This document shows, piece after piece, positions 6,566 to 35,220 of a DNA stretch of 64,000 bases. This DNA is from Nannocystis bainbridge. GTDB lineage: Bacteria > Myxococcota_A > Polyangia > Nannocystales > Nannocystaceae. The translations under genes and the position numbers were made by a program. Every line of letters starts with the position of its first letter. The first letter of the stretch is position 1. Below the pieces are notes generated by a model, which saw only the letters and a program-made list of their open reading frames with translations, did not search any database and was not told where the DNA came from. The stretch is from contig NZ_JAQNDL010000002.1 in the NCBI RefSeq assembly GCF_028368995.1, positions 481,724 to 545,723 on the forward strand. Reading direction: 5' to 3'.

Positions 6566-7216
6566 CAGAACTTGAACTCCAGGACCGGGACGATCATCTC
6601 GTTCGCGGCGGTCGGGGTCGGGTTGCGCGGCCGCCGGGTCAGCTCGGCGGTGATCGTCGCCAGGCCGCTGTTGAGGAACGCCTCGCCGAGCACGATCGCG
6701 GTGGCGTGGCCGAGGTTGCGGAAGTCGGCGCCGCCGACGACCGCGCCGATGAAGATGCCGAGGTGCGAGATCTGGTTGACGAGGAAGCCGGGCCAGAAGC
6801 GATCGCGGCCCGGCGCGATGGTCCGCCCGACCGCCCACTGCACGGTGTAGTTGAGGATCGGCGGCAAGAAGGCGCCGAGCATCAGGGCGCCGATCGCCGG
6901 GCCGAGGCCGTGGCCGGTCTCGCCGACGCGGGTGGCGACGAAGTAGGTCGCCGGCTGGATGATGATGGTGCTGAACACGCCGGCGCTGAAGTGCGAGAAC
7001 ACGAAGTTGCCGTCGGTCGGGCCGCGCTCGCGGCGACGGCGTTCGCGGCGGGTGGTCGCGGGCGCCGGGGCCGGCTCGCTGGCGGCGGCTTCGGGGGTGG
7101 CGACGGCGGCGGTGGAGGTCGGCGGCGTCGCGGTCGGGCCCGGCTCGCGCAGTTCGCCGGCGCACGCGACGAGCGCGAGGCAGCCGGCGAGGAGGGTGGG
7201 ACGGTGCCCCTGCATG
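6566..7216 (-). CDS. Outer-membrane beta-barrel protein (OmpW/porin-like), lipoprotein-type signal
   Basis: 'MQGHRPTLLAGCLALVACAG' signal, alternating amphipathic strands and C-terminal '...VPVLEFKF' aromatic terminus typical of outer-membrane barrels. Stop directly abuts the ATG of the downstream hydrolase. Confidence 0.55.
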
Positions 7217-7485: not shown

Positions 7486-9402
7486 ATGAGTCCGCGCATT
7501 GTCACTGCCCGAAGTGTTTCTTTCGCCATCCTCTTCGTAATGATGGGACCCACAGTGGTCCAGGCCGAGCCGCTGGTGTGGCCGACCCGCGGGGAGGCGC
7601 TTCCCCCCGACACCTATATCACCACGTCCGGCCACGCCTTCACGACCAACGCGATCGACTTCTCGGCGCTGCGCTGGGACGCGAGCGCCGGTCAGTATTC
7701 GATCTGGAGGGCCGACGCGACCTCGCCGCTGACCGTCGACGATCACGCGGCGTTCGGCACCGCGCTGTTCGCCCCGGAGGACGGCTTCGTGGTCGCGTGC
7801 TTCCACAATCACCCGGACAGCCAGGATCCGACCGTCAATCAGTGCCCCGGCGGGAACTGTCCGGCGGGCCTCAACGAGGGCGGCAACTTCATCATGATCG
7901 TCGGGGCCGACGGCGATCACGCCGTCACCCTCGCGCACCTGCAAGAGGACTCGATCCCGCCCGGACTGTGCCCCAACGCCTCGACGCCGCCGGTCGCCAA
8001 CGCGGGCTCTTGCAGCATCTCGGGCATGGACGCGATCCGCGACGAGTTCCGCCTCGACATCCAGAACCCCGGCCAGCCGTATCCGCTGGTGTTCAAGGGC
8101 GATCTCGTGGGCAGGCTGGGCCACAACGGCAACTCGACCGGGCCGCACACCCACGTGCACTGGAAGCCGTTCGCGTTCGACGGCTCCGACAATCCTTGTG
8201 AGGGCGATTCGGAGCCGATCGAGTGGTTCGAGGGCTACCGGCAGAGCCGCACGCCGGGCGTGGCGCCGACTTCCACCTGGACGCAGATGGACGGCCACGA
8301 GGTCGTCGACGGGGTCAGCCTGCTCGTCTGGCCGGACCCGGTCGGCTGGGCCTTCAGCCCGCTCGCGTACGGCCACGACGCCTCGAACCTGCACCTGTAC
8401 TCGTATGGGGCCGGCGGCGTCGGGGCCTACCAGGACGCCACGGGCAACCTCGACATCCGCACGTGGACGGTGTCGACCGCCGGCGTGGTGACCGACCAGG
8501 ACCTGCGCGAAGAGGGCGCCGTCCTGGACGTCGCGCTCGCCGGGCCGATGAGCTCGCGCGACGTGATCGCGGTGATCCGCGGCTCCAACGGCGACCTGAA
8601 GCTCATCCCGTACGACGTCGACAGCAGCGGCAACATCACGCGCCTGACCGGCCAGGAAGAGGACGGCGGCGCGGTCAGCCAGGTCGCGGCGGTGAAGTCG
8701 CCGACGCACATGGGCGTGGTGGTGGCGGTCCGGGACGGCAGCGGCAACCTCGAGGTGATCGACTACACCTCCGACATCTCGCTGAACCTCACCAAGGAGG
8801 TCGACGAGGGCAGCGGCGGGGCGATCCGCGACATGGCGATCACGAGCGTCCAGGTCGAGTTCCAGGGCGTGGTGACGGCGGAGCTCAAGCAGTCGAACGG
8901 CGAGCTGATCGTGCGCAGCTTCGACGTGCCGACCGGCGGCGGGGTGTTCGCGGCCGACGACTTCGCGTCCGGCGTGCTGGCGACCGCGGTCGACATCGAC
9001 ACGGTCCCGGTCGGCCTCGGCGAACAAGTCGTGACCAGCGTGCAGCTCGCCAGCGGGGTGCTGCGCCTCGATACGTGGGAGGTCGATGTCGCCGGCACGA
9101 TCGTGCACAACGAGACGATCTCGACCGACGGCACCGTCAGCGCGCACTCGGGCACCCACGGGGGCAATGGCGATTTCCTGACGGCCGTCGTCGACTCCAC
9201 CGACCACGCGCGCCTGATCAGCTGGCAGGTCGCGAGCGACGGCCAGCTCCGCCGCAGCGGCACCCGCCTCGGCCGCGAGACGACGGCGCTCGCCGTCATG
9301 CGGGCGAACGATTCGGTCGGGCACGTCACGCTCCTCTACACCGATGAGAATGACGCGCTGAACCTGCGGGTCTACGATCGCAACTACGATTCGAACCTGT
9401 GA
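7486..9402 (+). CDS. Secreted M23 (LytM-type) metallopeptidase fused to about 7 beta-propeller-like repeats
   Basis: RBS GGAGGAG 7 nt upstream. Signal peptide present. M23 signature 'LVGRLGHNGNSTGPHTHVHW'. C-terminal repeats 'DLKLIPYDVDSSGNITRL', 'NLEVIDYTSDISLNL', 'ELIVRSFDVPTGGG', 'VLRLDTWEVDVAGTIV', 'ALNLRVYDRNYDSNL'. Confidence 0.7.
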   Translation: MSPRIVTARSVSFAILFVMMGPTVVQAEPLVWPTRGEALPPDTYITTSGHAFTTNAIDFSALRWDASAGQYSIWRADATSPLTVDDHAAFGTALFAPEDGFVVACFHNHPDSQDPTVNQCPGGNCPAGLNEGGNFIMIVGADGDHAVTLAHLQEDSIPPGLCPNASTPPVANAGSCSISGMDAIRDEFRLDIQNPGQPYPLVFKGDLVGRLGHNGNSTGPHTHVHWKPFAFDGSDNPCEGDSEPIEWFEGYRQSRTPGVAPTSTWTQMDGHEVVDGVSLLVWPDPVGWAFSPLAYGHDASNLHLYSYGAGGVGAYQDATGNLDIRTWTVSTAGVVTDQDLREEGAVLDVALAGPMSSRDVIAVIRGSNGDLKLIPYDVDSSGNITRLTGQEEDGGAVSQVAAVKSPTHMGVVVAVRDGSGNLEVIDYTSDISLNLTKEVDEGSGGAIRDMAITSVQVEFQGVVTAELKQSNGELIVRSFDVPTGGGVFAADDFASGVLATAVDIDTVPVGLGEQVVTSVQLASGVLRLDTWEVDVAGTIVHNETISTDGTVSAHSGTHGGNGDFLTAVVDSTDHARLISWQVASDGQLRRSGTRLGRETTALAVMRANDSVGHVTLLYTDENDALNLRVYDRNYDSNL

Positions 9403-23676: not shown

Positions 23677-25107
23677 TCAGGCCGGCGGGAGGGCGGCGAG
23701 CACCGACGCGGCGAAGCCGTCGAGGTCCCACGCGGCGCGGTCGTGGGTCATGCCGAGGCGGACGATCACGGCGTCGCGCGAGGGCACGACCAGCACGGCC
23801 TGGCCCTGGAAGCCGGAGGCCTGGAAGGCGTCGGCGGGCACGTGCGGCAGGCGGCGCTTGGCCGGGTCGGCCGGGTCGGGGGCGTTGGCCCAGAAGTGGG
23901 CCGCGTAGTCGCCGGGGCCGGTGCGGGTCGGCGTGCGGCTGTACGCGACCCAGCCCTCGGGCAGGATCCGCGCGCCGTCCCACACGCCGTCGCGCAGGTA
24001 CAGCAGGCCGAAGCGGGCCCAGTCGCGCGCGGTCGCGTGCACGAACGAGGACCCGAGGAAAGTGCCGGCGGCGTCGGTCTCGAACACGGCCGAGCGCATG
24101 CCGATCGGCGCAAACAGGGCCTCGTGGGGGAAGCGGTGGTAGTCCGCCAGCGCGGCGAACTGGTTACGCACGATCCAGCTGAGGATGTTGCTGGTGCCGC
24201 TCGAGTAGGCGAACGCGGTGTCGGGGTCGCGCGCGAGCGGGCGCGCGAGGGCGACGTCGGCGGCGTTGGTGACCTCGAACAGCATGTGGGTGGCGTCGGC
24301 GAGCGGGCCGTAGCGCTCCTCGAATTGCAGGCCGCTGCTCATGCGCAGCAGCTGATCGAGGGTGATCGCGCGGCGGGCGTCGCCGGCCCACGCGGGCACC
24401 GGCGCGGGCGCTTCGCGGGCGAGCAGGCCGCGGCCGACGAGGATCCCGACCAGCGCGCCGGTGATGCTCTTGGCCATCGACCAGCCGAGGTGACGGGTGT
24501 CGCGGTCGAAGCCGTCGGCGTAGCGCTCGGCGACGATGGCCCCGCCGTGCACGACGACGACGGCGCGGGTGCGACGCAGCGCTTCGGGGTTCGGCTCGGT
24601 GAAGGCGGCGGCGACGGCCGCGTCGAGCGCGGCGCGATCGAGGCCGGGTGGATCGGCGGCGATCCGCTCGCCCTCGCCGGCGGGCCACGGCGCGTCCGCG
24701 GCCGCAGCGTGAGTCACGGCGAGGGTCTGGGCCTGCAGGGCGTCGGGCTCGACGCCGATGGCGAGGGCGCAGCCGAGGCCGTCGCGGTGGACGGCGGTGC
24801 GCCCGGCCAGCCCGAGCACGCTGGCGTGGACGCGCCGGCGCTCGCGGTCGACGGTGAAGGACACGTACCACTGCGGCGCGAGGTCCTCGGCGCCGACGCG
24901 GTCGGGATCGCGGCCGGCGACGAACACGGCCGAGCAGGCGTTCTTGGCCACGTAGCCGGTCGCGGTCGGGAGGATCCAGCCGGCCGCGAACACCAGCGCG
25001 GCCAGCAGCACGAGGACGAGGCCGACGAGGAGCCGCCGACGCAGGCGAGAGGGTGCAGGCGTGGCGGTCACGTGCAGGCGAGTGTACCGCCTCGGCGCGT
25101 CATGCAT
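23677..25107 (-). CDS. Beta-lactamase-family serine hydrolase, membrane-anchored
   Basis: N-terminal TM helix. SxxK 'SMAKS'. Paralogue of 5417..6565 with extensive shared motifs ('VVHGG.IV.ERYA', 'LPEGW.A.S'). Confidence 0.7.
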   Translation of the reverse strand: MHDAPRRYTRLHVTATPAPSRLRRRLLVGLVLVLLAALVFAAGWILPTATGYVAKNACSAVFVAGRDPDRVGAEDLAPQWYVSFTVDRERRRVHASVLGLAGRTAVHRDGLGCALAIGVEPDALQAQTLAVTHAAAADAPWPAGEGERIAADPPGLDRAALDAAVAAAFTEPNPEALRRTRAVVVVHGGAIVAERYADGFDRDTRHLGWSMAKSITGALVGILVGRGLLAREAPAPVPAWAGDARRAITLDQLLRMSSGLQFEERYGPLADATHMLFEVTNAADVALARPLARDPDTAFAYSSGTSNILSWIVRNQFAALADYHRFPHEALFAPIGMRSAVFETDAAGTFLGSSFVHATARDWARFGLLYLRDGVWDGARILPEGWVAYSRTPTRTGPGDYAAHFWANAPDPADPAKRRLPHVPADAFQASGFQGQAVLVVPSRDAVIVRLGMTHDRAAWDLDGFAASVLAALPPA

Positions 25108-25199
25108 GCGCGGACAGGCGAGTCGGTGCGGCAGGCGGGCCGCGAGTGACTTGAGGCATCCGTGCTCGCGGCGCGCGGGCGCGCGAGGGCTGGCGGGGC

Positions 25200-26375
25200 G
25201 TGATACGGTGCGGACCGATGCGATCTTCGGCTTGGCAGGGACTGCTGGGGGCCTCCGTGGCGGTGCAGGTGTTGGCGTGCGGCGACGTGGGCAGCGGCGC
25301 GGACACGAGCGCGACGGGGGTGACGGGGGCGACCTCGCTGACGACGACGACGTCAGGCGAGCCGACCACCGGCGGGACGCCGACGTCGTCGGGCGAGGCG
25401 AGCGCGACGAGCGTCGACGACAGCACGGGCGCGGCGACCTCGACGAGCACCGCGACGGGCGGTCCGGCGCTCGACCTCGGCATGCCGGATTTCGGCGGCC
25501 CGAGCGAGTGCGCGGCGCAGCAGCACGTCGCCTGCGACGCGGTCGACGGCGATCCGCTGCAGGCGATCGGGCTCAACTGCCCCGGCGAGCTGGCGGTCAC
25601 GGGCGGCTTCGACGGCCACCCGGACGGGCTGCGGGTGATCTCGCAGTGGGGCCAGGCGGACACGTTCACGCCGCGCGAGGGCGACAGCTTCCTCGTGCTC
25701 AGCACCGGCGACCTGGCGGAGATGCACGACGCGCCGGCCGACGCGGGCGACGTGTCGTATCACTGCAACTCGTGGTTCTCGCCGGGCGACGGCATGGACA
25801 CGACCAAGTTCCCGCCGCCGATCACCAAGCAGCCGGTCCAGGGCGACTGCCTGAGCGACCCGTCGCTGGTCGGCACCGGCGACTGCTCGAAGACGGTCAA
25901 GAACCAGTTCGACCAGAGCGGCTTCAAGTACGACTATCAGGAGCTGCGCTTCACCGCGGTGGTGCCGGACGGGGCGGAGTCGTTCAGCTTCGATCTGGCG
26001 TTCTTCACCAAGGAGTACCCGATCTGGCAGGACCAGCCGTATAACGACATGTTCATCGGCTGGCTCGAGTCGGAGCACTGGACCGGCAACATCTCGTTCG
26101 ACGCCCAGGGCAAGGCGCTGTCGCTCAACGCGGCGTTCCTCGAGCTCTACGACGACGGCGGCGACCTGCCGGAATTCGCCGGCACTTGCATGCGCTACAG
26201 CGCCGGCACCAAGTGGTTGACGACCACGGCCGACGTGGTGCCGGGCGAGACGATCGAGCTGGTGCTGGCGATCTTCGACCTCGACGACGTCAACTGGGAC
26301 AGCTTCGTGCTGGTCGACAACTTCCAGTGGCACTGCGGCGACGCGACCGGTCCGGTGACCGAGCCGGTGGGCTGA
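25200..26375 (+). CDS. Hypothetical secreted lipoprotein with Thr/Ser-rich linker (alternative start at 25218)
   Basis: 'AVQVLACG' lipobox, TTTSGEPTTGG linker, conserved-looking C-terminal domain rich in Asp/Trp/Cys. Confidence 0.55.
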   Translation: MIRCGPMRSSAWQGLLGASVAVQVLACGDVGSGADTSATGVTGATSLTTTTSGEPTTGGTPTSSGEASATSVDDSTGAATSTSTATGGPALDLGMPDFGGPSECAAQQHVACDAVDGDPLQAIGLNCPGELAVTGGFDGHPDGLRVISQWGQADTFTPREGDSFLVLSTGDLAEMHDAPADAGDVSYHCNSWFSPGDGMDTTKFPPPITKQPVQGDCLSDPSLVGTGDCSKTVKNQFDQSGFKYDYQELRFTAVVPDGAESFSFDLAFFTKEYPIWQDQPYNDMFIGWLESEHWTGNISFDAQGKALSLNAAFLELYDDGGDLPEFAGTCMRYSAGTKWLTTTADVVPGETIELVLAIFDLDDVNWDSFVLVDNFQWHCGDATGPVTEPVG

Positions 26376-26431
26376 GGTCGCATTGACAGGGCGCGGCGCG
26401 GTCGGTAGGAACCAGGGCTCGCCCGCCCGCC

Positions 26432-27124
26432 ATGACGATCGCATCGACGCTGCTTGACGAACTCGAGGCGCGGATGATCGCGCTGCCGGCGGCGTCGGTG
26501 ACCCTGCGCGACGAGGGCTCGAAGACGAACTGGAGCGTCGCGGTGGCGGCGTTTCGCCTGGCGGCGGTGCCGGTGACCCGCGAGCTGTACGCGGCGGTGC
26601 ACGGCGAGGCGCCGCCGTCGCCTGCGGGGCCGCGCACGCCGGTGACCGAGGTGTCGTGGAACGACGCGGTCCGGTTCTGCAACGCGCTGTCGCTGCAGGC
26701 GGGGCTGCGGCCGTGCTACGCGATCGGCGGCGACCCGGAGGCGCGCGACGTGACGTGCGACCCGGCGGCGGGCGGCTACCGCCTGCCGTCGGAGGCGGAG
26801 TGGGAGTACGCGTGCCGGGCTGGGACGACGGGCGAGCGCTATGGCGAGCTCGACGCGATCGCGTGGCACCGCGACAACTCGGGCGGCGCGCCGCACGAGG
26901 TGGCGACCCGCGAGCCCAACGCGTGGGGCTTCTTCGACACGATCGGCAACGCCTGGGAGTGGTGCTGGGACGTCTACGATCCGAAGGTCTACGGGCCGTA
27001 TCGGGTGTTCCGCGGCGGGGGCTGGAACGACCGCCCGCGCGGCCTGCGGGCCTCGTGCCGGCGCAAGAGCCACCCGACCTTCCGCGTCGACGACCTCGGA
27101 TTTCGCGTGGCGCGCTCGATCTGA
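26432..27124 (+). CDS. Formylglycine-generating-enzyme (FGE/SUMF1/EgtB-type) domain protein
   Basis: 'WEYACRAGT', 'GNAWEWCWD', 'RGGGWNDRPRGLRASCR', 'GFRVARS' match the FGE-sulfatase domain. Confidence 0.75.
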   Translation: MTIASTLLDELEARMIALPAASVTLRDEGSKTNWSVAVAAFRLAAVPVTRELYAAVHGEAPPSPAGPRTPVTEVSWNDAVRFCNALSLQAGLRPCYAIGGDPEARDVTCDPAAGGYRLPSEAEWEYACRAGTTGERYGELDAIAWHRDNSGGAPHEVATREPNAWGFFDTIGNAWEWCWDVYDPKVYGPYRVFRGGGWNDRPRGLRASCRRKSHPTFRVDDLGFRVARSI

Positions 27125-27140
27125 GGCGATCGGCTGGCGA

Positions 27141-27240
27141 AATGGACATGTCCTTGGGGACATGTCATTCTTCGGAGTCGGGGCCGCGTGAACGTGGTTC
27201 CTGGTGGACATGACTGTTTCGACATGTCCCAAGAGACATG
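27141..27240. repeat. CATG-core palindrome cluster
   Basis: GGACATGTCC, GGACATGTCA, GGACATGAC, GACATGTCC, GACATGG starting 17 bp after a stop. Confidence 0.8.
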
Positions 27241-27330
27241 GGCGGTGCAGCACGGACGCGCGCCTCCTGGGTCCACGGGCGGCGTGCGATCGCGGCGCGC
27301 GATGGGCGAGTCATGGGCTATGCTCGGAAG

Positions 27331-29121
27331 ATGCGAAACTATTTTTGGCTTGGCTCCCCGCGGAAATTTGGCTTGTGGATGGCGATGGCGGCGGCCCCGG
27401 GCTGCACCGAGCGCGACCCTGGCGGTGACACGGACAGCGACGGCGACACGGGGGGGCCCGCGACCGCCGGGACGATGACGGACGGGTCGATGACGGATCC
27501 GGCGACGACCGCTCCGACGACGGTCGCTCCGACGACGACCGATCCGACCGACGGGCCGACGTCGGACAGCGAGGGCACGACGGACGGGCCCGAGCCGGCG
27601 CAGACGGTGCTGATCGCCGGCAGCAACGACGCCGACATCCTGTTCGTGATCGACAACTCGGTGTCGATGGCGACCCGGCAGGCCAAGCTGGCCGCGGCCA
27701 TGCCGGCGTTCGTCGACGCGCTCGGCAGCCTGCGCTACCGCATCGGCATCACCACCACCGACGACGGCAACCCGCGCTGCGCCGAGGCGTCCACCGGCCC
27801 GGAGCACGGCGAGCTGGTGCTCACGAGCTGCCTCGAGCGCGTGGCGGCCGGCGAGTTCGAGGTGCCAGGGGTGCTCGAAGACGTGTCGGCCGCGTGCACC
27901 GCGACGTGCGAGCTCGGCGACGCGCAGCTGCCGATCAAGCCCACGGCCACCCACGCGTCGGGCGGCGAGCTGGCGCCGCGCAAGTGGGTCGAGGTCGACG
28001 GCCTGCACACCAACCTGCCCGACGGGGTGACGCCGGCGCAGGCGCTGCAGTGCTTCATGCCGCAGGGGGTGACGGGCTGCGGCTTCGAGTCGCACCTCGA
28101 CTCGATGTTCCGGGCGATCGCGCGGACCACCGACGCGGGCTCGCCGAGCAACTTCGGGTTCTTGCGCCCGCAGGCGAGCCTGACGGTGGTGGTGTTCAGC
28201 GACGAGACCGACTGCTCGCGCCAGGTCGACGAGATCTTCACCACCAACAAGGTGTTCTGGGAGGACCCCGACGGAGTGGTGCCGACGAGCGCCCTGTGCT
28301 GGAACGCTGGCGTGCGCTGCGACGGGCCCGGGCCGGTGTTCGCGGGCTGCGCGGCGGACAACCACGACATCACGGGTGCGGTCGGGGTGGCCGACGAGGC
28401 GGCGGTGCTGCCATCGGTGACGCAGTACGTCGCGTTCTTGCAGGCGATCGAGGACGACAAGCGCAAGCTCGACCCGCTGGCCGAGGTGCGGATGATGATG
28501 ATCGCCGGGGTGCCGCCCGGCTACGAGTCGCACCAGGCCGAGATCGTGTACGCGGACGCGGCCGACCCCGAGGTCCAGAACAGCTTCGGCATCGGCTTCG
28601 GCTGCGTCGACGGCGACGCGCTCGGCTCGGTCCCGCCGGTGCGCGAGCGCGAGGTCGCCGAGGCGTTCGCGGTCGGCGACGGGCGCGACATCTTCTCGAT
28701 CTGCGAGGACGACTACAGCGCCGCGCTGGCCGCGATCGCGTCGCGGATCGCCGACCAGATCCGCCCGGCCTGCATGCCGCTGTGCGTCGCCGACGTCGAT
28801 CCCAATACGGCGGTGCTCGATCCGCTCTGTGAGGTGTTCGAGGTCGATGACGCGGCCCAGACCCGCGTGGGGCTGCTCCCGTGCGAGTCGCTCGACGACA
28901 ACTGGGTCGTGCCCGCCGGGGTGACGGCCTGCTTCGCCCCATTGCTCGACCCGGACGGCAGCACGCCGAGCCCCATTGACGACATGTCGAGCGTGTGCGT
29001 CGACCAGGGCTGGAACCTCGAGTTCTTGCTCCTGCGCTCGGCGCCGGCGCCGCTGGGCGTGACGATCGAGGCGACGTGCGAGGTCGCTACGAACCCGGCC
29101 GCCCAGTGCCCGCTGCTGTGA
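27331..29121 (+). CDS. von Willebrand factor A (vWA) domain lipoprotein
   Basis: Signal/lipobox, Thr/Asp-rich linker, MIDAS motif 'ILFVIDNSVSMA'. Paralogue of 42212..43255 ('VLFVVDISASM'). Confidence 0.65.
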   Translation: MRNYFWLGSPRKFGLWMAMAAAPGCTERDPGGDTDSDGDTGGPATAGTMTDGSMTDPATTAPTTVAPTTTDPTDGPTSDSEGTTDGPEPAQTVLIAGSNDADILFVIDNSVSMATRQAKLAAAMPAFVDALGSLRYRIGITTTDDGNPRCAEASTGPEHGELVLTSCLERVAAGEFEVPGVLEDVSAACTATCELGDAQLPIKPTATHASGGELAPRKWVEVDGLHTNLPDGVTPAQALQCFMPQGVTGCGFESHLDSMFRAIARTTDAGSPSNFGFLRPQASLTVVVFSDETDCSRQVDEIFTTNKVFWEDPDGVVPTSALCWNAGVRCDGPGPVFAGCAADNHDITGAVGVADEAAVLPSVTQYVAFLQAIEDDKRKLDPLAEVRMMMIAGVPPGYESHQAEIVYADAADPEVQNSFGIGFGCVDGDALGSVPPVREREVAEAFAVGDGRDIFSICEDDYSAALAAIASRIADQIRPACMPLCVADVDPNTAVLDPLCEVFEVDDAAQTRVGLLPCESLDDNWVVPAGVTACFAPLLDPDGSTPSPIDDMSSVCVDQGWNLEFLLLRSAPAPLGVTIEATCEVATNPAAQCPLL

Positions 29122-29349
29122 CGGCAGGCGCCGAGCTGCCTCGTCGTCGATCGCGGCGGTGACGGGCGGCCCGGCGGGTGGCCATGCACGAAGCGTCGCA
29201 GTTCCGGAGACGGACGGATGTCGGGCTGGCCACGCGGCGCGCCCGTGATCGCCGACACGCCCTGCGGAGACGGACGACCCGCGCCCCGGCCACTGCAACG
29301 ATCAGGGGCGCGAGCGCGGGTCGGCGGAGCGATCGGCGGCGGGCGTCGC

Positions 29350-29395
29350 GGAGGATTTTATGGAGATGTCTCGAGGGCCATGTGACGACATTCGC
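29350..29395. repeat. Degenerate CATG-core palindrome cluster
   Basis: GGAGATGTCTC, GGCCATGTGAC, GACATTC. Weaker copies upstream of the radical-SAM-like gene. Confidence 0.45.
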
Positions 29396-29418
29396 CGCGG
29401 CGGCGCGGAGGTGCGGTC

Positions 29419-30447
29419 ATGACGGGGGTCGCACCTGCGGACGGTCTGCTGGCGCGGGCCCGGCGGATGGTGGCGCGCTCGCCGACGGCGGTGGCGCTGG
29501 CGGAGCAGGTCTATCGCTCGCCGCGGCTGCAGCGGACTCCCGTGTTCCGCCGCTTCGTCCACCAGCGCGTGGCGGGGGCCGAGGCGGCGGTGCAGGCCGG
29601 GGCGCCGCCGCTGCTGTGGCTCGAGACGGTCTCGCTGGGCAAAGGCCGCGGCGCGCGGTGCGACCCCAGCACGATGGCGGAGGTGATGGCGATGGACCTG
29701 TTCCGCCGCCTGGTCGACGAGGCGTCGGCGTGGGGCGTCGATTCGGTGGGCCTCAGCATCCACGGCGAGCCGATGATCGACGCGCGCTGGATCGAGCGGC
29801 TGCAGTACGTGCGCATGGCGGGGATGACGTACCGATTCTCCTCCGACGCGAGCATGCTGACGCCCGCGCTGGCGGCGACGATGCTCGAGCTCGGCGGCTG
29901 GGCGGAGGTCGAATTCAGCGTCCAAGGGCGCTCGAAGCCGGTCCACGAGGCCACGATGCCGCCGCGGCCGCGCGACCTCGTGCACGCCAACATCGAGCAG
30001 TTCCTGGCGCTGCGGCGGGCCCACGTGGGCGAGGTGCCGCAGGTGACGGTGTCGTGCGTGACGCTGGCCGAGGACGAGCTGCCCGAGTTCGTGCGCTACT
30101 GGCGGCCGCGCGTCGATCGGGTCAGGGCCGGCTGGCCCGGTGAGGCGCAGCAGACGGACCGGTCGGTGCCGGTGCGCGGGCACCTGCCGGTGGTGGATGA
30201 CGCGGGGCCGCAGATGCCGTGCCCGGCGCCGTGGCGCAAGATGTATGTGTACGCCGACGGGCGGGTGTCGCCGTGCAGCGAGGACGCGGCGCTGCGCGAG
30301 CTGATCCTCGGCGACGCGAATGCTCAGACGCTGCGCCAGATCTTCCACGGGCCCGCCTACGCGGGGTTGCGCGAGCGTCACCGCGAGGAGCGCCGTCACG
30401 AGCACCGGATCTGCGGCGGCTGTCACGTCAATCCGCCGTGGATCTGA
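29419..30447 (+). CDS. Radical-SAM-fold protein with C-terminal twitch/SPASM-type cysteine cluster but no canonical CX3CX2C motif
   Basis: 'SIHGEPMID' (GGEP SAM-binding motif). C-terminal 'CPAPWRKMYVYADGRVSPC...CGGCHV' (C-x17-C with G-x4-C, then CxxC). The expected CX3CX2C position reads 'LGKGRGARCDP' in all frames. Confidence 0.55.
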   Translation: MTGVAPADGLLARARRMVARSPTAVALAEQVYRSPRLQRTPVFRRFVHQRVAGAEAAVQAGAPPLLWLETVSLGKGRGARCDPSTMAEVMAMDLFRRLVDEASAWGVDSVGLSIHGEPMIDARWIERLQYVRMAGMTYRFSSDASMLTPALAATMLELGGWAEVEFSVQGRSKPVHEATMPPRPRDLVHANIEQFLALRRAHVGEVPQVTVSCVTLAEDELPEFVRYWRPRVDRVRAGWPGEAQQTDRSVPVRGHLPVVDDAGPQMPCPAPWRKMYVYADGRVSPCSEDAALRELILGDANAQTLRQIFHGPAYAGLRERHREERRHEHRICGGCHVNPPWI

Positions 30448-30619
30448 CTGCGCAATTTCATGGGACTCGCTTTGAGGTGAGGCGAAGCCGCGGGCGGCTC
30501 GGGTCATGTGATTTCGTGACGCGGCAGCGAGGCGTAAATCAGCAGCGCCGTGTACTCGCACGAGGGCGGCGCGGCAGGGTGAGGTCGGGCGCGGAATCGA
30601 GCTGCGGAGGCGGCTGTGG

Positions 30620-30665
30620 GGCGAAATTCGCGCCTTGACGGTGATATTGAAATTCGTTATCAAAT
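30620..30665. promoter_or_regulatory. AT-rich promoter-like element (TTGACG-N17-TATCAA) upstream of the methyltransferase gene
   Basis: 'cttgacggtgatattgaaattcgttatcaaataatc' is about 30% GC in a 70% GC background, 30-70 bp upstream of the ATG at 30693. Confidence 0.3.
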
Positions 30666-30692
30666 AATCATGCGCACGAAAGAAGTGGAAGC

Positions 30693-31391
30693 ATGAGCCA
30701 CGCAGCCTTCGACCTGCTCGACAGTCGGACCGCGCGCGTCCTCCAGCGGCTTCACGCCGAGGCGGACCGGCAGATGCCGCGGCTCCTATTACAGTACCTG
30801 CCGGTGCTGCCGCGGCTGCTCCTGGGTCAGCGGATCGATTTCAAGGACGAGCACCTCGGGTTTTACGCGGACAAGTTCATCGCCCTCGACCGCGATCAGG
30901 CGGCCTTCTGCTATTTGCAGGTGCGGGCGCTCCGGGCCCGTCAGGTCGTCGAATTCGGGACTTCGTTCGGGGTCTCGACGATCTGGCTGGCGGCCGCGGT
31001 CCGCGACAACGGCGGGGGCAAGGTGATCGGCACCGAGATGGTGCCGGCGAAGGCGCAGCGGGCCCGCGAGCACGTCGCGGAGGCGGGGCTCACGGAATAT
31101 GTCGAGATCCGCGAGGGCGACGCCAACGAGACGCTGCGGTCGATCGACGGCGAGGTCGATTTCTTCCTCAACGACGGGTTCCCGATGCTCGCGCTCGACA
31201 TCCTCAGGCTGGTCGCGCCGCACATTCGCCCGGGGGCGGTGGTCCTGACGGACAACGTCGGTCACTTTCGCGGCAACTACCGCGAATACCACGCCTACCT
31301 GCGAGACCCCCGGAACGGCTTCCAGACGATCACGATGCCGCTCCGCTCCGGGACCGAATATTCGGTGCGCACGGCCGAGGCCCCGCGCTGA
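30693..31391 (+). CDS. Class I SAM-dependent O-methyltransferase (caffeoyl-CoA OMT-like, family 3)
   Basis: Motif I 'VVEFGTSFGVSTIWLA', 'KVIGTEM', 'DFFLND'. Length and layout of cation-dependent OMTs. Confidence 0.7.
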   Translation: MSHAAFDLLDSRTARVLQRLHAEADRQMPRLLLQYLPVLPRLLLGQRIDFKDEHLGFYADKFIALDRDQAAFCYLQVRALRARQVVEFGTSFGVSTIWLAAAVRDNGGGKVIGTEMVPAKAQRAREHVAEAGLTEYVEIREGDANETLRSIDGEVDFFLNDGFPMLALDILRLVAPHIRPGAVVLTDNVGHFRGNYREYHAYLRDPRNGFQTITMPLRSGTEYSVRTAEAPR

Positions 31392-31504
31392 GCGGGCGAT
31401 CGGGCGCGCGCCCGCGAGGCCGAAGTCCTCGCGGTGTGGTGAATGCCGGATCGGAGGGTGGAGCGATCGGCGGAGGTGGGCGGCGTCGTTCGCCGGCCGC
31501 GTGA

Positions 31505-32770
31505 TCAGGTGCCGGAGCGCCAGCCGGCGAGGTAGTCGCGCTGCGCGTCGCTCAGGACGTCGAACTCGACCCCGAGCGCGCGCAGCTTGAGGCGCGCGAC
31601 CTGTTCGTCGAGCGCGTGCGGGAGGGTGTGCACGTCGGGGGCGAGCGCGCGGCCGGACTGCAGCACGTACTCGGCGGCGAGCGCCTGGTCGGCGAAGCTG
31701 AGGTCCATGACCGCGGCGGGGTGGCCCTCGGCGGCGGCGAGGTTGACGAGGCGGCCCTCGGCGAGCAGGTAGATCCGGCGGCCGTCGGGGCGCACGAATT
31801 CGTCGAGGGACGGGCGGATCCGCCGCTGCTGTGGGGCCGCGGCGGCCAGCGCGGCGAGGTCGATCTCGACGTCGAAGTGGCCGGCGTTGGCGATCACGGC
31901 GCCGTCCTTCATGGCCGCGAACTCGGGGCCGCCGATGACGTCGCGGTTGCCGGTGACGGTGCAGAAGATGTCGCCGACGGCGGCAGCGTGGGCGATCGGC
32001 AGCACCTGGAAGCCGTCCATGGTCGCCTCGAGCGCGCGCAGCGGGTCGACCTCGGTGACGATGACGCGCGCGCCCATGCCGGCGGCGCGCGCAGCCAGGC
32101 CGCGGCCGCACCAGCCGTAGCCGCAGACGACGAAGCAGGCGCCGGCGAGCAGGCGGTTGGTGGCGCGCAGGATGCCGTCGATGGTGCTCTGGCCGGTGCC
32201 GTGGCGGTTGTCGAACATGTGCTTGGTGGCGGCGTCGTTGACGGCGATCACGGGGTAGCGCAGGGCGCCGTCGCGGGCCATCGCGCGCAGGCGGGTGACG
32301 CCGCTGGTGGTCTCCTCGGTGCCGCCGACGATGGCGTCGCCGAGCGCGGCGTGGCGGGTGTGCACGAGCGTGGCGAGGTCGGCTCCGTCGTCCATGACGA
32401 GCTGCGGCCGGTGGGCCAGCGCCGCGGCCAGGTGCGCGAAGTAGGTCGGGCGATCCTCGCCGGCGCGGGCGTAGACGGCGATGCCGTCGTCGAGCGCGAG
32501 CGAGGCGGCGACGTCGTCCTGGGTGCTGAGCGGGTTGCTGGCGCACAGGCGCAGGTCGGCGCCGCCGGCCTGGAGGGTGCGCACGAGCGCGGCGGTCTCG
32601 GCGGTGACGTGTAGGCAGGCCGCGACGCGCACGCCCGCGAGCGGGCGCTCGCGGGCGAACCGCTCGCGCACGGCGGCGAGCACGGGCATGGCCCGCTCGG
32701 CCCAGTCGATCTTGTCACGCCCACGCGGGGCCAGGGTGTCGTCGCTGATGTCTCTCGTGGTGGTCGTCAT
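31505..32770 (-). CDS. ahcY: Adenosylhomocysteinase (S-adenosyl-L-homocysteine hydrolase)
   Basis: Strongly conserved AdoHcyase motifs 'HMFDNRHGTGQS', 'CGYGWCGRG', 'VTEVDP', 'VNLAAAEGHPAAVMDLSFA'. 421 aa. Confidence 0.85.
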   Translation of the reverse strand: MTTTTRDISDDTLAPRGRDKIDWAERAMPVLAAVRERFARERPLAGVRVAACLHVTAETAALVRTLQAGGADLRLCASNPLSTQDDVAASLALDDGIAVYARAGEDRPTYFAHLAAALAHRPQLVMDDGADLATLVHTRHAALGDAIVGGTEETTSGVTRLRAMARDGALRYPVIAVNDAATKHMFDNRHGTGQSTIDGILRATNRLLAGACFVVCGYGWCGRGLAARAAGMGARVIVTEVDPLRALEATMDGFQVLPIAHAAAVGDIFCTVTGNRDVIGGPEFAAMKDGAVIANAGHFDVEIDLAALAAAAPQQRRIRPSLDEFVRPDGRRIYLLAEGRLVNLAAAEGHPAAVMDLSFADQALAAEYVLQSGRALAPDVHTLPHALDEQVARLKLRALGVEFDVLSDAQRDYLAGWRSGT

Positions 32771-32872
32771 GTCCCGGTCCCCGCGGTGCGCGGGGCCTCC
32801 TGCCAGCGAAGATGCGGGAGGGCGATGCATCAGTCACGTTCGGGTTTTTTCGAGATGGTATAAGTCGAGCTA

Positions 32873-33805
32873 ATGCTGCCGGACTTCAACCGCCTGCGGG
32901 TGTTCTTCCACGTCCACGAGGCACGCAGCGTCAGCGCGGCCGCGGCGGCGCTGCACGTGACGCAGTCGGCGGTGAGCCAGAGCCTGGCCAAGCTCGAGGA
33001 CGAGCTGAAGGCGCAGCTGTTCGTCCGCCGCCACCGCGCGATCGTGCCGACGGCGGCAGGCGAGGCGCTGTTCGCCGTGGTCGCGCCGTTCGTCGCGGGG
33101 CTGCAGGAGGGGGTCGGGCAGATCCACCGGGCGCGCCACGAGCTGGCAGGGACGCTGCAGATCGGGGCGCCGGTGGAGTTCGGGTCGCATCGGCTGCCGG
33201 AGGTGCTGGCGAGGTTCGCCCGCGCACACCCGGGGGCGCGCTTCTCGCTGCGCCTGGGCCACCCGTCGGAGATCGTGCCGCTGCTCGAGGAGGGCCGGCT
33301 CGACCTGGGTTTCGCGGACTTGTTCGAAGGGACAGGCGCTTCGGAGCGCCGACTGGCGGGCTTCGAGGTGGCGGAGGTGATGGAGGAGGCGCTGGTGCTG
33401 GTGGCGAGCGCGGAGGTCGAGGCGGCGGCGCTGCAGGGCAGCGGGGCGTTCACAAAGTTGTCGCGGCTGCGCTTCGTCGACTACCACCCGAGCGCGCCGG
33501 CGGTGCGCGGGTGGTTCCGCCACCACTTCGGGCGGGTGCCGCCGCGGCTCGAGCCGACGCTGGCGGTGGAGAGCGTGCAGGCGGTGATCGCCGCGACGAG
33601 CCACGGGATGGGCTTCGGGGTGGTGCCGGCCCACACGGTGGCGCGGGCGCTGGCAGAGGGCGAGCTGGTGGCAGTGACGACGCGCAAGCGAGCGCTGACG
33701 AACCGGATCTCGCTGGTCCGCCTGCTCGACCGGGTGCCGAGCCGATTGGAGCGGACGTTCGTGGCGTTCGTGACGCAGGCGCTCGGGAAGCGCGCGGCGG
33801 GGTGA
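32873..33805 (+). CDS. LysR-family transcriptional regulator (divergent from ahcY)
   Basis: HTH 'LHVTQSAVSQSLAKLEDELKAQLFVR' plus LysR substrate-binding domain. Confidence 0.8.
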   Translation: MLPDFNRLRVFFHVHEARSVSAAAAALHVTQSAVSQSLAKLEDELKAQLFVRRHRAIVPTAAGEALFAVVAPFVAGLQEGVGQIHRARHELAGTLQIGAPVEFGSHRLPEVLARFARAHPGARFSLRLGHPSEIVPLLEEGRLDLGFADLFEGTGASERRLAGFEVAEVMEEALVLVASAEVEAAALQGSGAFTKLSRLRFVDYHPSAPAVRGWFRHHFGRVPPRLEPTLAVESVQAVIAATSHGMGFGVVPAHTVARALAEGELVAVTTRKRALTNRISLVRLLDRVPSRLERTFVAFVTQALGKRAAG

Positions 33806-33965
33806 GGCGGAGTCATGCATGACTCGATCGGGACGAGGCGGAGGATGAGCCCGATCGGAATGCGGATGCTCGACCGGCCGAAGATTCGAGATGTCTCTCG
33901 GGTCATGTCGGCCGGTTGCCGTGAGCACAGGACGAATCAGGAGCGCTGGGCTATGCTCGCCGCGC

Positions 33966-34538
33966 ATGCTCGGTGCTCGGATCGATCTCGAGGGGCTGCG
34001 GACCGGTGGGCCGCGGCAGCAGCGGGCGTACGCGGTGCTGCGGTCGCTGGCGATCTTCGAGCGGCTGGCGGCGTTTCGCCCGGCGCTGGCGGGCACGTTG
34101 CCGCTGCCGATCCATACCGAGGCGAGCGACCTCGACGTGCTGTGCGAGGTGCACGATCCGGGGGCGTTCGTGGCCGCGTGCTCGGTCTACGCGGCGTGGC
34201 CCGGGTTCAAGACATCGCAAGCCGAAGTGCGCGGGGTGTCGTCGACGATCGTGCGCTTCACGGCCGAGGAGTTCCCGGTCGAGCTGTTCGGGCAGCCGCA
34301 GCCGGTGGCGCAGCAGCACGGCTGGCGTCACCTGCAGGTCGAGGCGCGGGTGTTGGCGCTGGCGGGTGAGGCGGCGGTAGCGACGATCACGCGATGGAAG
34401 CGCGAGGGCATGAAGACCGAGCCGGCGTTCGCGCGGTGGTTGCAGCTGCCCGGCGACGATCCGTACCTGGCCGTGCTCGCGCTCGAGGGGCTCGACGACG
34501 AGGCGCTGCGGCGGCTGGTGGCGCGGGCCGGGCGGTGA
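33966..34538 (+). CDS. Hypothetical protein (DUF4269-like)
   Basis: 190-aa ORF with coding GC3. No catalytic motif recognised. Confidence 0.45.
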   Translation: MLGARIDLEGLRTGGPRQQRAYAVLRSLAIFERLAAFRPALAGTLPLPIHTEASDLDVLCEVHDPGAFVAACSVYAAWPGFKTSQAEVRGVSSTIVRFTAEEFPVELFGQPQPVAQQHGWRHLQVEARVLALAGEAAVATITRWKREGMKTEPAFARWLQLPGDDPYLAVLALEGLDDEALRRLVARAGR

Positions 34539-34802
34539 GCCGCGGCTGATCGGGTCGCGGTCCCCGCGGGTGTGTCGCAATGCCTCCGTCGGCGGGGAGG
34601 TCACGCGTCGCAATCAGCGCGCGTGGCTGCGGTCGAGCTCGCTCGGCGCCGCGCGGGCGCCCTGCTGGCGGCCTCGGCGGCGGTTTGTCGCCGGCGCGGC
34701 GAAACCAGGGCGCGGGTCGCTTGCCGAGGGCGGTGGTCGTCGACAGATAGGAAGAGCACGGTTCGCCTGGCGAGCCGGCGAATCCGAAGGAGATCCAGCT
34801 TC

Positions 34803-35006
34803 ATGACGCAGCCCCTCAAAGTCCCGGTAGGCACGCGAGTCACGACCCCTTCAGGCGAGGAGGGCGACATCATCGAGGCGCTCGGGCGCGACGGCACGGC
34901 GCCGTACCGGGTGAAGTACGCGGACGGGCGCGAGTTCGTGTGGACGCCGCCGCCGGACTACGCCCTCGGCGACGAGCCGGCCCCGGAGAACGCGCCGCTG
35001 CCCTAG
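34803..35006 (+). CDS. Small hypothetical protein (DUF1918-like, 67 aa)
   Basis: 'VTTPSGEEGDIIEALGRDGTAPYRVKYADGREFVW' resembles the small beta-barrel DUF1918 family. Confidence 0.45.
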   Translation: MTQPLKVPVGTRVTTPSGEEGDIIEALGRDGTAPYRVKYADGREFVWTPPPDYALGDEPAPENAPLP

Positions 35007-35014
35007 ACGCCGTC

Positions 35015-35100
35015 TGTCTCGTGAGACATGCATGAAGGGACATGTCCTCGGGTTTATGCGCATAAGCGCAGGTACGAAGGGACATGTCCTCGGGTTCATG
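35015..35100. repeat. CATG-core palindrome cluster with a duplicated 'GAAGGGACATGTCCTCGGGTT' unit flanking a TTTATGCGCATAA palindrome
   Basis: GACATGCATG, GGGACATGTCC x2. Starts 9 bp after the stop of the 34803 gene. Confidence 0.8.
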
Positions 35101-35220
35101 TGCCGGGGTACAGGCGCTGACCTCGGCGGGCAGCCACGGCGCGGGCCGCTAGTTCGGCCCAGCGGACGGCTTCTCGAACACCACGGCGCCTTCTTTGACG
35201 ACCCGCGACCACGTTGTGGG

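Follow-up and report, generated by a model that had tools for sequence, protein, structure and literature searches.

The ORF at 29419..30447 (+) of the window (the whole stretch of Nannocystis bainbridge DNA that was analysed, 64 kb) encodes a BtrN-like twitch radical-SAM orthologue without the Cys triad, and judging from its sequence the protein has almost certainly lost its radical-SAM activity. The radical-SAM cluster requires three Cys ligands, two of which are gone here, so neither cluster binding nor SAM cleavage would be expected. On the homologues compared, the lesion appears as a derived state confined to the N. bainbridge lineage, i.e. to two strains, because every homologue examined has an intact CX3CX2C. 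What we see is an enzyme decaying, or a pseudo-enzyme being born, in one lineage; no new kind of enzyme is involved. The first-pass annotation had proposed a possible pseudo-enzyme, which is a fair description of a catalytically dead protein, although with every homologue intact it applies to this lineage and not to the family. It had also named intact homologues, with a lesion particular to one copy, as the finding that would speak against it, and this is what the comparison shows, the homologues all being intact and the lesion being confined to one lineage of two strains.

Lost cluster site and degenerate core

The ORF starts with ATG and encodes 342 aa followed by a stop, and its product is 100% identical to the NCBI entry 'radical SAM/SPASM domain-containing protein [Nannocystis bainbridge]'. 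The sole Pfam match of the protein is SPASM PF13186 (aa 268-336, E 6.4e-12, 46 bits vs a gathering cutoff of 21.5). PF04055 gives no match even at E<=10, as opposed to 49.7 bits (cutoff 29.5) on the intact orthologue P0002. The former cluster-binding loop (aa 69-89, 29623..29685, + strand), which has low pLDDT, reads VSLGKGRGARCDPS--TMAE in place of VLTCNARCSMCVHSERKMVG. There is one Cys in the segment aa 68-83, LETVSLGKGRGARCDP, namely C81 (29659-29661); the other two were replaced by Gly (C74G and C78G, both TGC->GGC), and a 6-nt in-frame deletion follows position 29670. The missing triad and the single Cys had been noticed at first pass, as had the lack of an alternative frame that restores the triad, and both observations are borne out: CX3CX2C is absent from the other two frames between 29590 and 29720, and the changes are point substitutions and a 6-nt deletion. 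Apart from C81 the core contains only the conserved C213, i.e. no replacement Cys was gained.

The damage extends over the rest of the degenerate radical-SAM core (aa 65-259, 29611..30195, + strand), a predicted (beta/alpha)6 partial barrel. The GGE-type SAM motif IHGEP (aa 114-118, 29758..29772, + strand) lies in the IHGEPMID segment (aa 114-121) to which the first-pass annotation had drawn attention; G116, E117 and P118 are kept, and the family-invariant Tyr at 115 has become His (Y115H). The family-invariant residues F141, N143, N165, N169, Y176, N219, I235 and D238 are also changed or deleted and, like Y115, may contact SAM, to judge from their strand positions. Two more in-frame deletions, common to the second strain, are found in the region 30073..30135 (+), one of 6 nt after 30075 and one of 12 nt after 30123, and take out conserved ENVHE and RVSIADRTDW residues. 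All three deletions are multiples of 3 and keep the frame. Among the 122 positions that are invariant in the family down to 40% identity, 23 are changed, 22 of 82 in the core vs 1 of 40 elsewhere (Fisher p=0.0009), the sites being the cluster loop and the strand ends. A second count gives the same picture: at 189 positions invariant in seven other copies (six from Nannocystis and the 52% MAG copy L007) the Cys-less copy departs by 34 unique substitutions and 3 gaps, vs 0-6 unique changes in each other Nannocystis copy.

The AF2 model of the Cys-less protein (pLDDT 82.8) contains six beta-alpha units, and its best PDB neighbours in Foldseek are SuiB, BtrN, BlsE, PqqE and anSME (anSMEcpe), the top ones all being radical-SAM enzymes. 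Since the protein is a syntenic orthologue of PF04055-positive proteins and its predicted structure gives these matches, it is assigned to the radical-SAM superfamily by descent and by modelled fold, in agreement with the fold originally proposed.

N-terminal extension and twitch domain

The two flanking parts of the protein are far better preserved. In the N-terminal helical extension (aa 1-64, 29419..29610, + strand), which is family-specific and absent from BtrN, none of the family-invariant positions is altered and the two strains do not differ at all. In the twitch (truncated SPASM) domain (aa 260-342, 30196..30444, + strand) one invariant position is altered, C287S; at least 90% of the family have C287, yet it is gone in N. 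bainbridge. The domain retains C268, C286, C332 and C335 in the pattern C268-x17-C286, C268-x12-G281-x4-C286 and C332-G-G-C335 (C332-x2-C335), and the protein ends at residue 342. The four Cys do not vary among 54 relatives and align with the auxiliary-cluster Cys region of BtrN, the twitch region as a whole being aligned to BtrN residues 181-256. Because the domain stops right after CX2C, its sequence identifies it as a one-cluster twitch of the BtrN type and not as the seven-Cys SPASM/anSME type. The auxiliary motif recognised at first pass is thus present, both as a Cys arrangement and as a PF13186 match, but its ascription to the anSME-like type has to be replaced. The auxiliary cluster of BtrN has four Cys ligands and persists once the RS Cys are mutated (PMC9012708). 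By analogy with the BtrN C16A/C20A/C23A variant, the Cys-less protein could carry at most one auxiliary [4Fe-4S] cluster.

Genomic surroundings

A Shine-Dalgarno-like GGAGG (29407..29411, + strand) is kept 8 nt upstream of the ATG, as in the orthologues. The 5' region (29270..29418, + strand) has blocks conserved across Nannocystis species, i.e. GGCCACTGCAACGATC, GCGTCGCGGAGGATTT and the palindrome ATGTCTC-N2-GAGACAT at 29366-29381, the right arm of which is GGGCCAT in N. bainbridge; an Rfam search of the region gave no riboswitch or known RNA match at E<=1. No second copy or paralogue of the ORF is present within the 64-kb window. An adjacent gene encodes an FGE-sulfatase domain, which is common in myxobacteria.

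The neighbours reported at first pass, a class-I SAM O-methyltransferase (30693-31391), an AdoHcy hydrolase (31505-32830, - strand) and a LysR regulator (32873-33805), are all in place. The functional context that was read from them, however, does not survive comparison: the O-methyltransferase is served by a conserved promoter of its own, adjoins an intact rSAM copy both in RBIL2 and in exedens, and is missing beside the intact gene of N. pusilla; moreover, the loci of Nannocystis, of the delta-MAG and of the alphaproteobacteria have no neighbour in common. As to a precursor peptide, none had been seen in the 245-bp gap downstream of the ORF, and we find there only ORFs of 26 and 31 aa; no conserved small ORF was found on either flank, and the protein has no Pfam match to a PqqD/RRE domain; a precursor gene nearby, such a domain, or both would mark a RiPP maturase. 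The missing precursor is expected rather than puzzling, because BtrN, the closest characterised relative, is a small-molecule dehydrogenase and not a peptide maturase.

Orthologues and family

Syntenic orthologues were found in six other Nannocystis genomes, all with TCNARCxMCVH and a PF04055 match. The relatives down to 40% identity (MAG relatives at 40-52%) all have an intact TCNARCxMCVH and likewise match PF04055, and among 244 retrieved proteins the full-length matches all contain CX3CX2C except for one unrelated, spiro-SPASM-like protein (P0057). N. pusilla, RBIL2, exedens, punicea and radixulma have a common gene order: choice-of-anchor-L, FGE-sulfatase, a 580-630-aa protein, rSAM ... 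AdoHcyase, LysR, DUF4269. Their intact copies (N. pusilla, exedens, punicea, radixulma and sp. RBIL2) are syntenic with the Cys-less gene and have the same three-part architecture; they differ from it in having TCNARCSMCVH, YGEP, FFSNAS, NFSVNG and RVSIADRTDW, in being 8 residues longer and in evolving slowly. They are annotated merely as 'radical SAM/SPASM domain-containing protein', and none of them reaches an NCBIfam cutoff, the best being TIGR04317 with 75 bits vs 380. The family, which comprises 19 representative clusters at E<=1e-30, is small and conserved; its members combine a radical-SAM core with a helical extension at the N-terminus and a one-cluster twitch domain at the C-terminus. 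Homologues from Riflebacteria (25-30% identity) adjoin another large gene.

The Cys-less copy is 68-74% identical to the other Nannocystis copies, vs 80-98% among those copies; of the neighbouring proteins, five out of seven are at 79-93% identity across Nannocystis species and the 627-aa protein at 60-72%. In the ML tree the Cys-less copy is sister to the pusilla/exedens clade. A xenologous or recombinant origin of its long branch was considered and rejected, since the neighbour genes are placed alike. Between the two strains divergence is locally raised from ~29612 to 30620, where a recombination tract is possible.

The second strain and selection

Every lesion of the N. bainbridge copy, and the length of 342 codons as well, recurs in a second strain (L023), which comes from an independent Logan assembly and has 98.9% nt identity over 10.5 kb. 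As the lesions are common to both, the Cys-less state predates the split of the two sequenced strains. The gene has continued to change since then: amino acid divergence is 3.5% in the Cys-less protein vs 0-1.3% in seven neighbours. Moreover, 8 of the 12 differences (V214G, I308L and P340S among them) are on positions that are invariant in the intact copies L005-L007, vs 2 of 12 and 6 of 30 in pairs of intact copies (p=0.003-0.009), and Asn169 and Asp238 are replaced differently in each strain.

Omega was estimated with our own GY94-F3x4 ML codon model; NG86 dN/dS was set aside because a GC3 of ~0.97 inflates its omegas for all pairs. The model assumes stationary codon frequencies, which the Cys-less gene violates, so the following omegas may be underestimates: over the whole gene 0.25 in the Cys-less copy vs 0.13 in the background (p=0.011), the former being different from 1 (p=2e-8); in the core 0.44 vs 0.096 (p=2e-5); in the twitch domain 0.15 vs 0.13 and in the N-terminal part 0.12 vs 0.26, neither being significant. 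Selection is relaxed in the core, and relaxation is not detectable in the N-terminal and twitch parts. The composition has moved too, GC3 from 0.97 to 0.94 and 0.93 in the two strains and GC1 from 0.675 to 0.75, and the synonymous branch of the Cys-less copy is ~2x its expected length. Intergenic DNA was also tried as a neutral yardstick between the strains and was rejected, its divergence being heterogeneous, mostly 0.4-1.7% with two patches at 12-14%.

Alternative explanations

We lean, with some reserve, towards a young pseudoenzyme-like remnant in which the catalytic core is drifting but purifying selection on the N-terminal and twitch parts has stayed near its ancestral level. Point substitutions (the two TGC->GGC changes among them) and three in-frame deletions would have removed two of the three [4Fe-4S] ligands, and would also have altered many residues where the barrel strands end C-terminally, whose role in the active site or in SAM binding is suggested by their strand positions. 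What is left is an intact ORF that is probably still translated, in which the N-terminal extension and the twitch domain with its four auxiliary-cluster Cys may be retained under selection as the core drifts. Any residual role may be on its way out.

A serious competitor, which we nevertheless consider the less probable outcome, is a plain relic: inactivation in the N. bainbridge lineage would have ended selection on every part of the gene, and the frame would be open only because stops are rare at 72% GC and the time was short. The replacements made after the strains split disregard earlier conservation (the 8 of 12 on invariant sites), invariant sites are still eroding in both strains, in the twitch domain too, amino acid divergence is ~8 times that of the neighbours, and the GC of the codon positions drifts towards the genome mean. 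The count-based omega between the strains (~0.36-0.48) is marginally below 1 (p=0.02-0.075), i.e. not clearly so. In a neutral simulation the probability of no stop was 0.31 after 60 substitutions (range 0.08-0.31), and at this GC content the open frame is weak evidence for selection. Against a relic, however, all three deletions are in frame, for which neutrality would give a probability of at most (1/3)^3 = 0.04, and the length of the ORF is identical in the two strains. The invariant positions were kept in 39 of 40 cases outside the core vs 60 of 82 inside it (p=0.0009), and one common relaxation fraction for the whole gene is rejected (p=0.003). By ML, the tips have an omega of 0.21 (p=9e-4 against 1) and the stem one of 0.23 (p=4e-9), and the ORF is ~5 times less diverged between the strains than the adjacent non-coding patch, intergenic divergence being heterogeneous.

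We can also speculate that the protein is a pseudoenzyme near its birth, the N-terminal extension and the twitch domain being selected for a non-radical role as an electron-transfer, sensing or binding module. This is conceivable, and we regard it as rather doubtful.

A neofunctionalised protein, i.e. a Cys-less form selected for a new non-radical role, for example as an Fe-S scaffold or partner of the O-methyltransferase, the AdoHcyase or LysR, seems improbable. In its favour, both the N-terminal extension and the auxiliary-cluster Cys have been conserved, the former active site has accumulated a dense cluster of changes that remodelling could explain, and Cys-less rSAM-like/SPASM families do exist (the TIGR04347 model and the spiro-SPASM-like P0057). 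On the other hand, omega exceeds 1 on no branch or partition in the GY94-F3x4 ML analysis, substitutions in the core have raised GC (34 W->S vs 20 S->W), as drift predicts, the active-site positions are still changing, in a different manner in each strain, the state is limited to one shallow lineage, and the O-methyltransferase has the independent promoter and the distribution among RBIL2, exedens and N. pusilla described above. Finally, that the enzyme is still active with non-canonical cluster ligands, or that errors of sequencing or assembly produced the lesion, is very hard to believe: C81, G116-E117-P118 and the barrel are kept and spacings other than CX3CX2C do occur in the superfamily, but no Cys was gained beside C81 and C213, conserved polar residues are lost at several strand ends, the cluster loop is shortened and of low confidence in the AF2 model, and the changes are substitutions and 3n deletions, not homopolymer indels, in a PacBio HGAP consensus (PMC10435759) and again in the independent Logan assembly.

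The annotation 'radical SAM/SPASM domain-containing protein' is misleading for the N. bainbridge gene, because radical-SAM chemistry would be impossible for a protein of this sequence. The locus offers a natural comparison between the intact enzyme in six sister genomes and the Cys-less form in two strains. It could be used to explore which constraints act on a twitch Fe-S domain after loss of the catalytic cluster, and by what route Cys-less rSAM-like/SPASM families might arise. It reveals no new enzyme class, RiPP system or functional tie to the methyl-cycle neighbours, and its biological value is modest; the intact BtrN-like family with its conserved N-terminal extension is uncharacterised and arguably the more useful target.

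Comparison with known systems

It is instructive to set the protein beside BtrN (2-deoxy-scyllo-inosamine dehydrogenase, PDB 4M7T/4M7S), the founding twitch-domain radical-SAM enzyme, which acts on a small-molecule substrate. When the family profile is compared with PDB sequences, BtrN comes out first (E 3e-17), with an alignment that spans the core as well as the Cys-bearing C-terminal domain. The two have in common the arrangement C-x(n)-G-x4-C ... C-x2-C, after which the protein soon stops, and the predicted fold (TM 0.69-0.74 normalised to BtrN). As for the differences, the structural alignment gives only ~14% identity, the family carries a helical extension of 64 aa at the N-terminus together with an additional conserved Cys (CC, aa 286-287), the gene context is not one of aminoglycoside genes, and the N. 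bainbridge copy is without two of the three RS-cluster Cys. With the anSME-type SPASM maturases the Cys-less protein has the superfamily and the first half of the SPASM motif in common, and anSMEcpe is among its fold matches; it has no CX2CX5CX3C segment, no second auxiliary-cluster site and no sulfatase or peptide substrate gene.

The loss of the cluster site as such has parallels. A search of the literature at hand on 'pseudo-SAM' proteins and radical-SAM pseudoenzymes found nothing relevant. The haloarchaeal 'pseudo-SAM/SPASM protein' TIGR04347 is, going by the name of the model alone, a similar concept, an rSAM-like N-terminus with a retained SPASM-type C-terminus. The same concept is seen in the spiro-SPASM-like proteins (TIGR04321), where the sequence of P0057 was confirmed to be without CX3CX2C. 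The Cys-less protein is a member of neither family (14.9 bits vs a cutoff of 525 for TIGR04347, 21.3 vs 250 for TIGR04321). If it is indeed a pseudoenzyme near its birth, the locus, which can be compared between intact orthologues of sister species and two diverged Cys-less strains, would illustrate the origin of families such as the 'pseudo-SAM/SPASM' proteins; TIGR04347 and TIGR04321 are NCBIfam families with curated cut-offs, whereas the N. bainbridge case is one shallow lineage in a canonical family.

Domain content and family assignment

The open reading frame at 29419-30447 (+ strand, 342 aa) is real: it starts with an ATG that has GGAGG 8 nt 5' of it, in a window of about 72% GC, and its product is identical to the NCBI Nannocystis bainbridge entry 'radical SAM/SPASM domain-containing protein'. 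The first-pass annotation described a protein that lacks the CX3CX2C triad and keeps auxiliary-cluster cysteines, and this observation is confirmed, i.e. the former cluster loop reads LETVSLGKGRGARCDP with C81 as its single Cys, and IHGEPMID, C268-x17-C286, G281-x4-C286 and C332GGC335 are all in place. In Pfam, SPASM is the only domain detected (46 bits, E 6e-12), Radical_SAM giving no match, and the triad is absent from both other frames as well. With NCBIfam, aa 88-218 match rSAM/SPASM maturases weakly, below threshold.

The assignment to a radical-SAM fold with a twitch domain is based on three lines of evidence. Firstly, the best PDB match of the family profile is BtrN (E 3e-17), the alignment spanning the radical-SAM core and the C-terminal domain with the four Cys. 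Secondly, the AF2 model (pLDDT 82.8, pTM 0.84) predicts four N-terminal helices, six beta-alpha units and a C-terminal beta-hairpin/helical domain, with low confidence restricted to the former cluster loop (aa 70-89) and aa 240-259. Thirdly, the PDB folds closest to this model are SuiB, BtrN, BlsE, PqqE, DesII, EpeE and anSME, in agreement with the radical-SAM fold predicted for the N-terminal region. Of the twitch/SPASM domain proposed earlier, the twitch part holds: the C-terminal domain is of the twitch kind and is not a full SPASM domain. The four C-terminal Cys, C81 and G116-E117-P118 are invariant across 54 relatives, and the intact orthologue reaches no family cutoff in NCBIfam. BtrN is the prototype twitch enzyme, with a single auxiliary [4Fe-4S] cluster held by four Cys ligands, and this cluster is still present in the C16A/C20A/C23A variant (PMC9012708). 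The ancestor of the window copy was thus a canonical twitch radical-SAM enzyme.

Homologues and lesions

A database search gave only six close relatives, all with PF04055 and PF13186 and all reading ...ETVLTCNA(R/K)C(S/T)MCVHSERKMVG... Species-representative genomes were scanned as well, and the gene occurs in those of N. pusilla, N. sp. RBIL2, N. exedens, N. punicea and N. radixulma, in one deltaproteobacterial MAG (52% identity) and in three alphaproteobacterial MAGs (40%), with TCNARCxMCVH in every copy. The Nannocystis copies share with the window the genes for a choice-of-anchor-L, an FGE-sulfatase-domain and a 580-630-aa protein on the 5' side, and AdoHcyase, LysR and DUF4269 on the 3' side. 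Among 95 relatives from a profile search, PF04055 is absent from the window protein only; the others without CX3CX2C among 244 retrieved proteins are N-terminally truncated fragments, bar one 542-aa spiro-SPASM-like protein. Since homologues across the searches otherwise carry CX3CX2C, the earlier reading does not stand as it was made, and the missing triad is a lineage-specific lesion of the window copy.

Identity of the window copy to the other Nannocystis copies is 68-74%, and among those copies themselves it is 80-98%; in the same species, five of seven neighbouring proteins are at 79-93% and the 627-aa protein is at 60-72%. At 189 positions invariant in seven other copies (six from Nannocystis and the 52% MAG copy), the unique substitutions of the window copy number 34 and its gaps 3, as opposed to 0-6 for every other Nannocystis copy. 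Positions that stay invariant down to 40% identity number 122, and the window copy departs at 23 of them. Eleven lie in the cluster loop, C74G and C78G (each TGC->GGC) among them; the others are Y115H, F141S, N143D, N165E, N169Q, Y176H, L183R, Y189H, N219D, a deleted I235, D238G and C287S. The core (aa 65-259) holds 22 changes at 82 such positions, as opposed to 1 at 40 elsewhere (Fisher p=0.0009). All three deletions (6, 6 and 12 nt) are in frame, and GC1 has moved from 0.675 to 0.746, GC2 from 0.49 to 0.52 and GC3 from 0.97 to 0.94. The assembly is a PacBio consensus (PMC10435759), so the lesions are not typical sequencing errors. One shallow lineage has therefore lost two of the three ligands of the cluster along with many of the conserved residues of the core.

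Selection and the second strain

Branch omegas were obtained by maximum likelihood with a GY94-F3x4 branch model of our own writing. For the whole gene, omega is 0.25 on the window copy against a background of 0.13 (p=0.011; against 1, p=2e-8), although the model presumes stationary codon frequencies, which the window copy violates. Its synonymous branch has about double the length seen in the sister clade, whereas the branch-length ratio of neighbouring genes is ~0.7-1.5. On the same branch no departure of omega from background is seen in five of six neighbours (p=0.22-0.91), and AdoHcyase is the borderline case (omega 0.058 against 0.029, p=0.058). In the core, omega is 0.44 against 0.096 (p=2e-5; against 1, p=0.02); the twitch domain (0.15 against 0.13) and the N-terminal extension (0.12 against 0.26) show no significant difference. 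With relaxation expressed in the model as the share f of the branch that evolved at omega=1, f is ~0.4 in the core and 0 in the rest, and one common f is rejected (p=0.003). Constraint has thus been relaxed mainly in the core.

The 90% protein cluster has one further member, from a Logan assembly of SRR28201026. This 10.5 kb contig of a second strain (L023) is 98.9% identical to window 24695-35191 with unchanged gene order, and its ORF has 342 codons, all the lesions and 12 differing residues. The Cys-less state is therefore older than the strain split and not an assembly artefact. Between the strains, synonymous and non-synonymous codon differences number 8/12 in the ORF and 25/10 in seven neighbours pooled (10/35 non-synonymous), and differences at the three codon positions are 2.0/1.5/2.9% and 0.26/0.13/1.12% per site, respectively. 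The ML omega of the tips is 0.21 (p=9e-4 against 1), indistinguishable from background; conditioned on the mutation spectrum, 13 of 22 changes are non-synonymous where 75-80% are expected (p=0.02-0.075), i.e. omega ~0.36-0.48. Of the 12 replacements, eight fall where three intact reference copies do not vary; comparing intact copies in pairs gives 2/12 and 6/30 (p=0.003-0.009). N169 and D238 are replaced differently in each strain, and V214G, I308L and P340S occur in L023 only.

Non-coding DNA differs by 0.4-1.7% in most stretches and by 12-14% in two patches, a heterogeneity that makes it unfit as a neutral yardstick. The patches (30448-30619 and 35004-35137; ~1% at neighbours' third codon positions) may represent hypervariable stretches between genes or tracts of recombination, and the second, near the contig end, could be assembly noise. 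The first 193 nt of the ORF (29419-29611) have no differences and the following 836 nt have 22; together with the downstream patch, this suggests either that recombination had a boundary near 29612 or that the N-terminal extension is strongly constrained.

Gene neighbourhood

A conserved sigma70-like promoter of its own precedes the O-methyltransferase at 30635-30663 (TTGACG, 17-nt spacer, TATCAA), with counterparts in L002 (~7148-7175), the N. exedens locus L004 (~8024-8051) and L023. It is (near-)identical in three species and the second strain, the remaining intergenic region being unconserved, and contains a dyad GATA-N11-TATC (30643-30661) resembling the LysR-type T-N11-A box. The methyltransferase lies 3' of the intact gene in RBIL2 and N. 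exedens, and unrelated genes take its place in N. pusilla; AdoHcyase and LysR are conserved neighbours whose distance varies, and nothing ties them to the radical-SAM gene. The functional context hinted at earlier for these three genes is not borne out, given the separate promoter of the methyltransferase and its absence in N. pusilla. The locus contains no precursor-like ORF or RRE, as the first-pass annotation had noted for the precursor, which would fit a BtrN-like small-molecule enzyme. No gene neighbour common to the Nannocystis and MAG loci was found, so context does not give the substrate.

In N. exedens, a ~1 kb insert (L004 7054-8030; absent in the window and RBIL2) separates the radical-SAM gene from the methyltransferase; its DNA has many repeated TGC/GAC codons, such as a Cys-rich D-C-G-G...C-P-x-C repeat protein would show. 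On the 5' side, five to six Nannocystis species have conserved blocks in common within 29270-29418. One element is a near-perfect palindrome, ATGTCTC-N2-GAGACAT (29366-29381; right arm GGGCCAT in the window), ~40 nt before the start, which may be an operator; Rfam has no match for the blocks or the palindrome. The 627-aa protein (27238-29121) keeps synteny with the gene in all Nannocystis genomes, has no Pfam match and is fast-evolving (60-72% identity across species; omega ~0.2, not relaxed on the window branch). Choice-of-anchor-L-like and FGE-sulfatase-domain (PF03781, E 1e-35) proteins at 25200-27124 are conserved 5' neighbours of the locus across Nannocystis. Distant Riflebacteria-type homologues (25-30% identity) are directly followed by a ~490-aa ORF (L014 6813-8303, L020 6813-8285) that starts ...VNPPFLPDYSRGQRSPA..., is absent in Nannocystis and is possibly a partner gene of that branch.

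Pseudoenzyme or relic

We infer that the window protein is unable to perform reductive SAM cleavage and may still bind one auxiliary cluster at most. The somewhat favoured reading is a dead enzyme whose ORF is still under some selection, which would make it a young pseudoenzyme. We count for selection the three in-frame deletions, the equal ORF length in two strains, the conserved non-core invariants, omega below 1, and the kept SD and upstream blocks. The second reading, a plain relic whose ORF is simply unbroken so far, we hold possible but doubtful. It draws on recent replacements blind to conservation, drifting codon-position GC, a raised synonymous rate and the ease with which a frame stays open at this GC (with 60 neutral substitutions, P(no stop) is 0.31). 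A specific new function is improbable, and about all that is left, a very slight chance, goes to residual activity or an artefact.

One precedent, by its name, is the NCBIfam model TIGR04347 ('pseudo-SAM/SPASM'). Another is the spiro-SPASM-like protein P0057 (Planctomycetes MAG, 542 aa), a full-length relative with an extra N-terminal domain; it has no Cys at all at the cluster-loop position, as checked in its sequence. The model that P0057 matches best is TIGR04321 (spiro-SPASM; 128 bits, short of the cutoff of 250), and this protein is an independent Cys-less rSAM-like/SPASM architecture. The window protein is below the cutoffs of both models and is therefore a member of neither family. Cys-less rSAM-like/SPASM proteins are thus known already, and the window protein is a further, independent and very young case of such an event, or simply gene decay.
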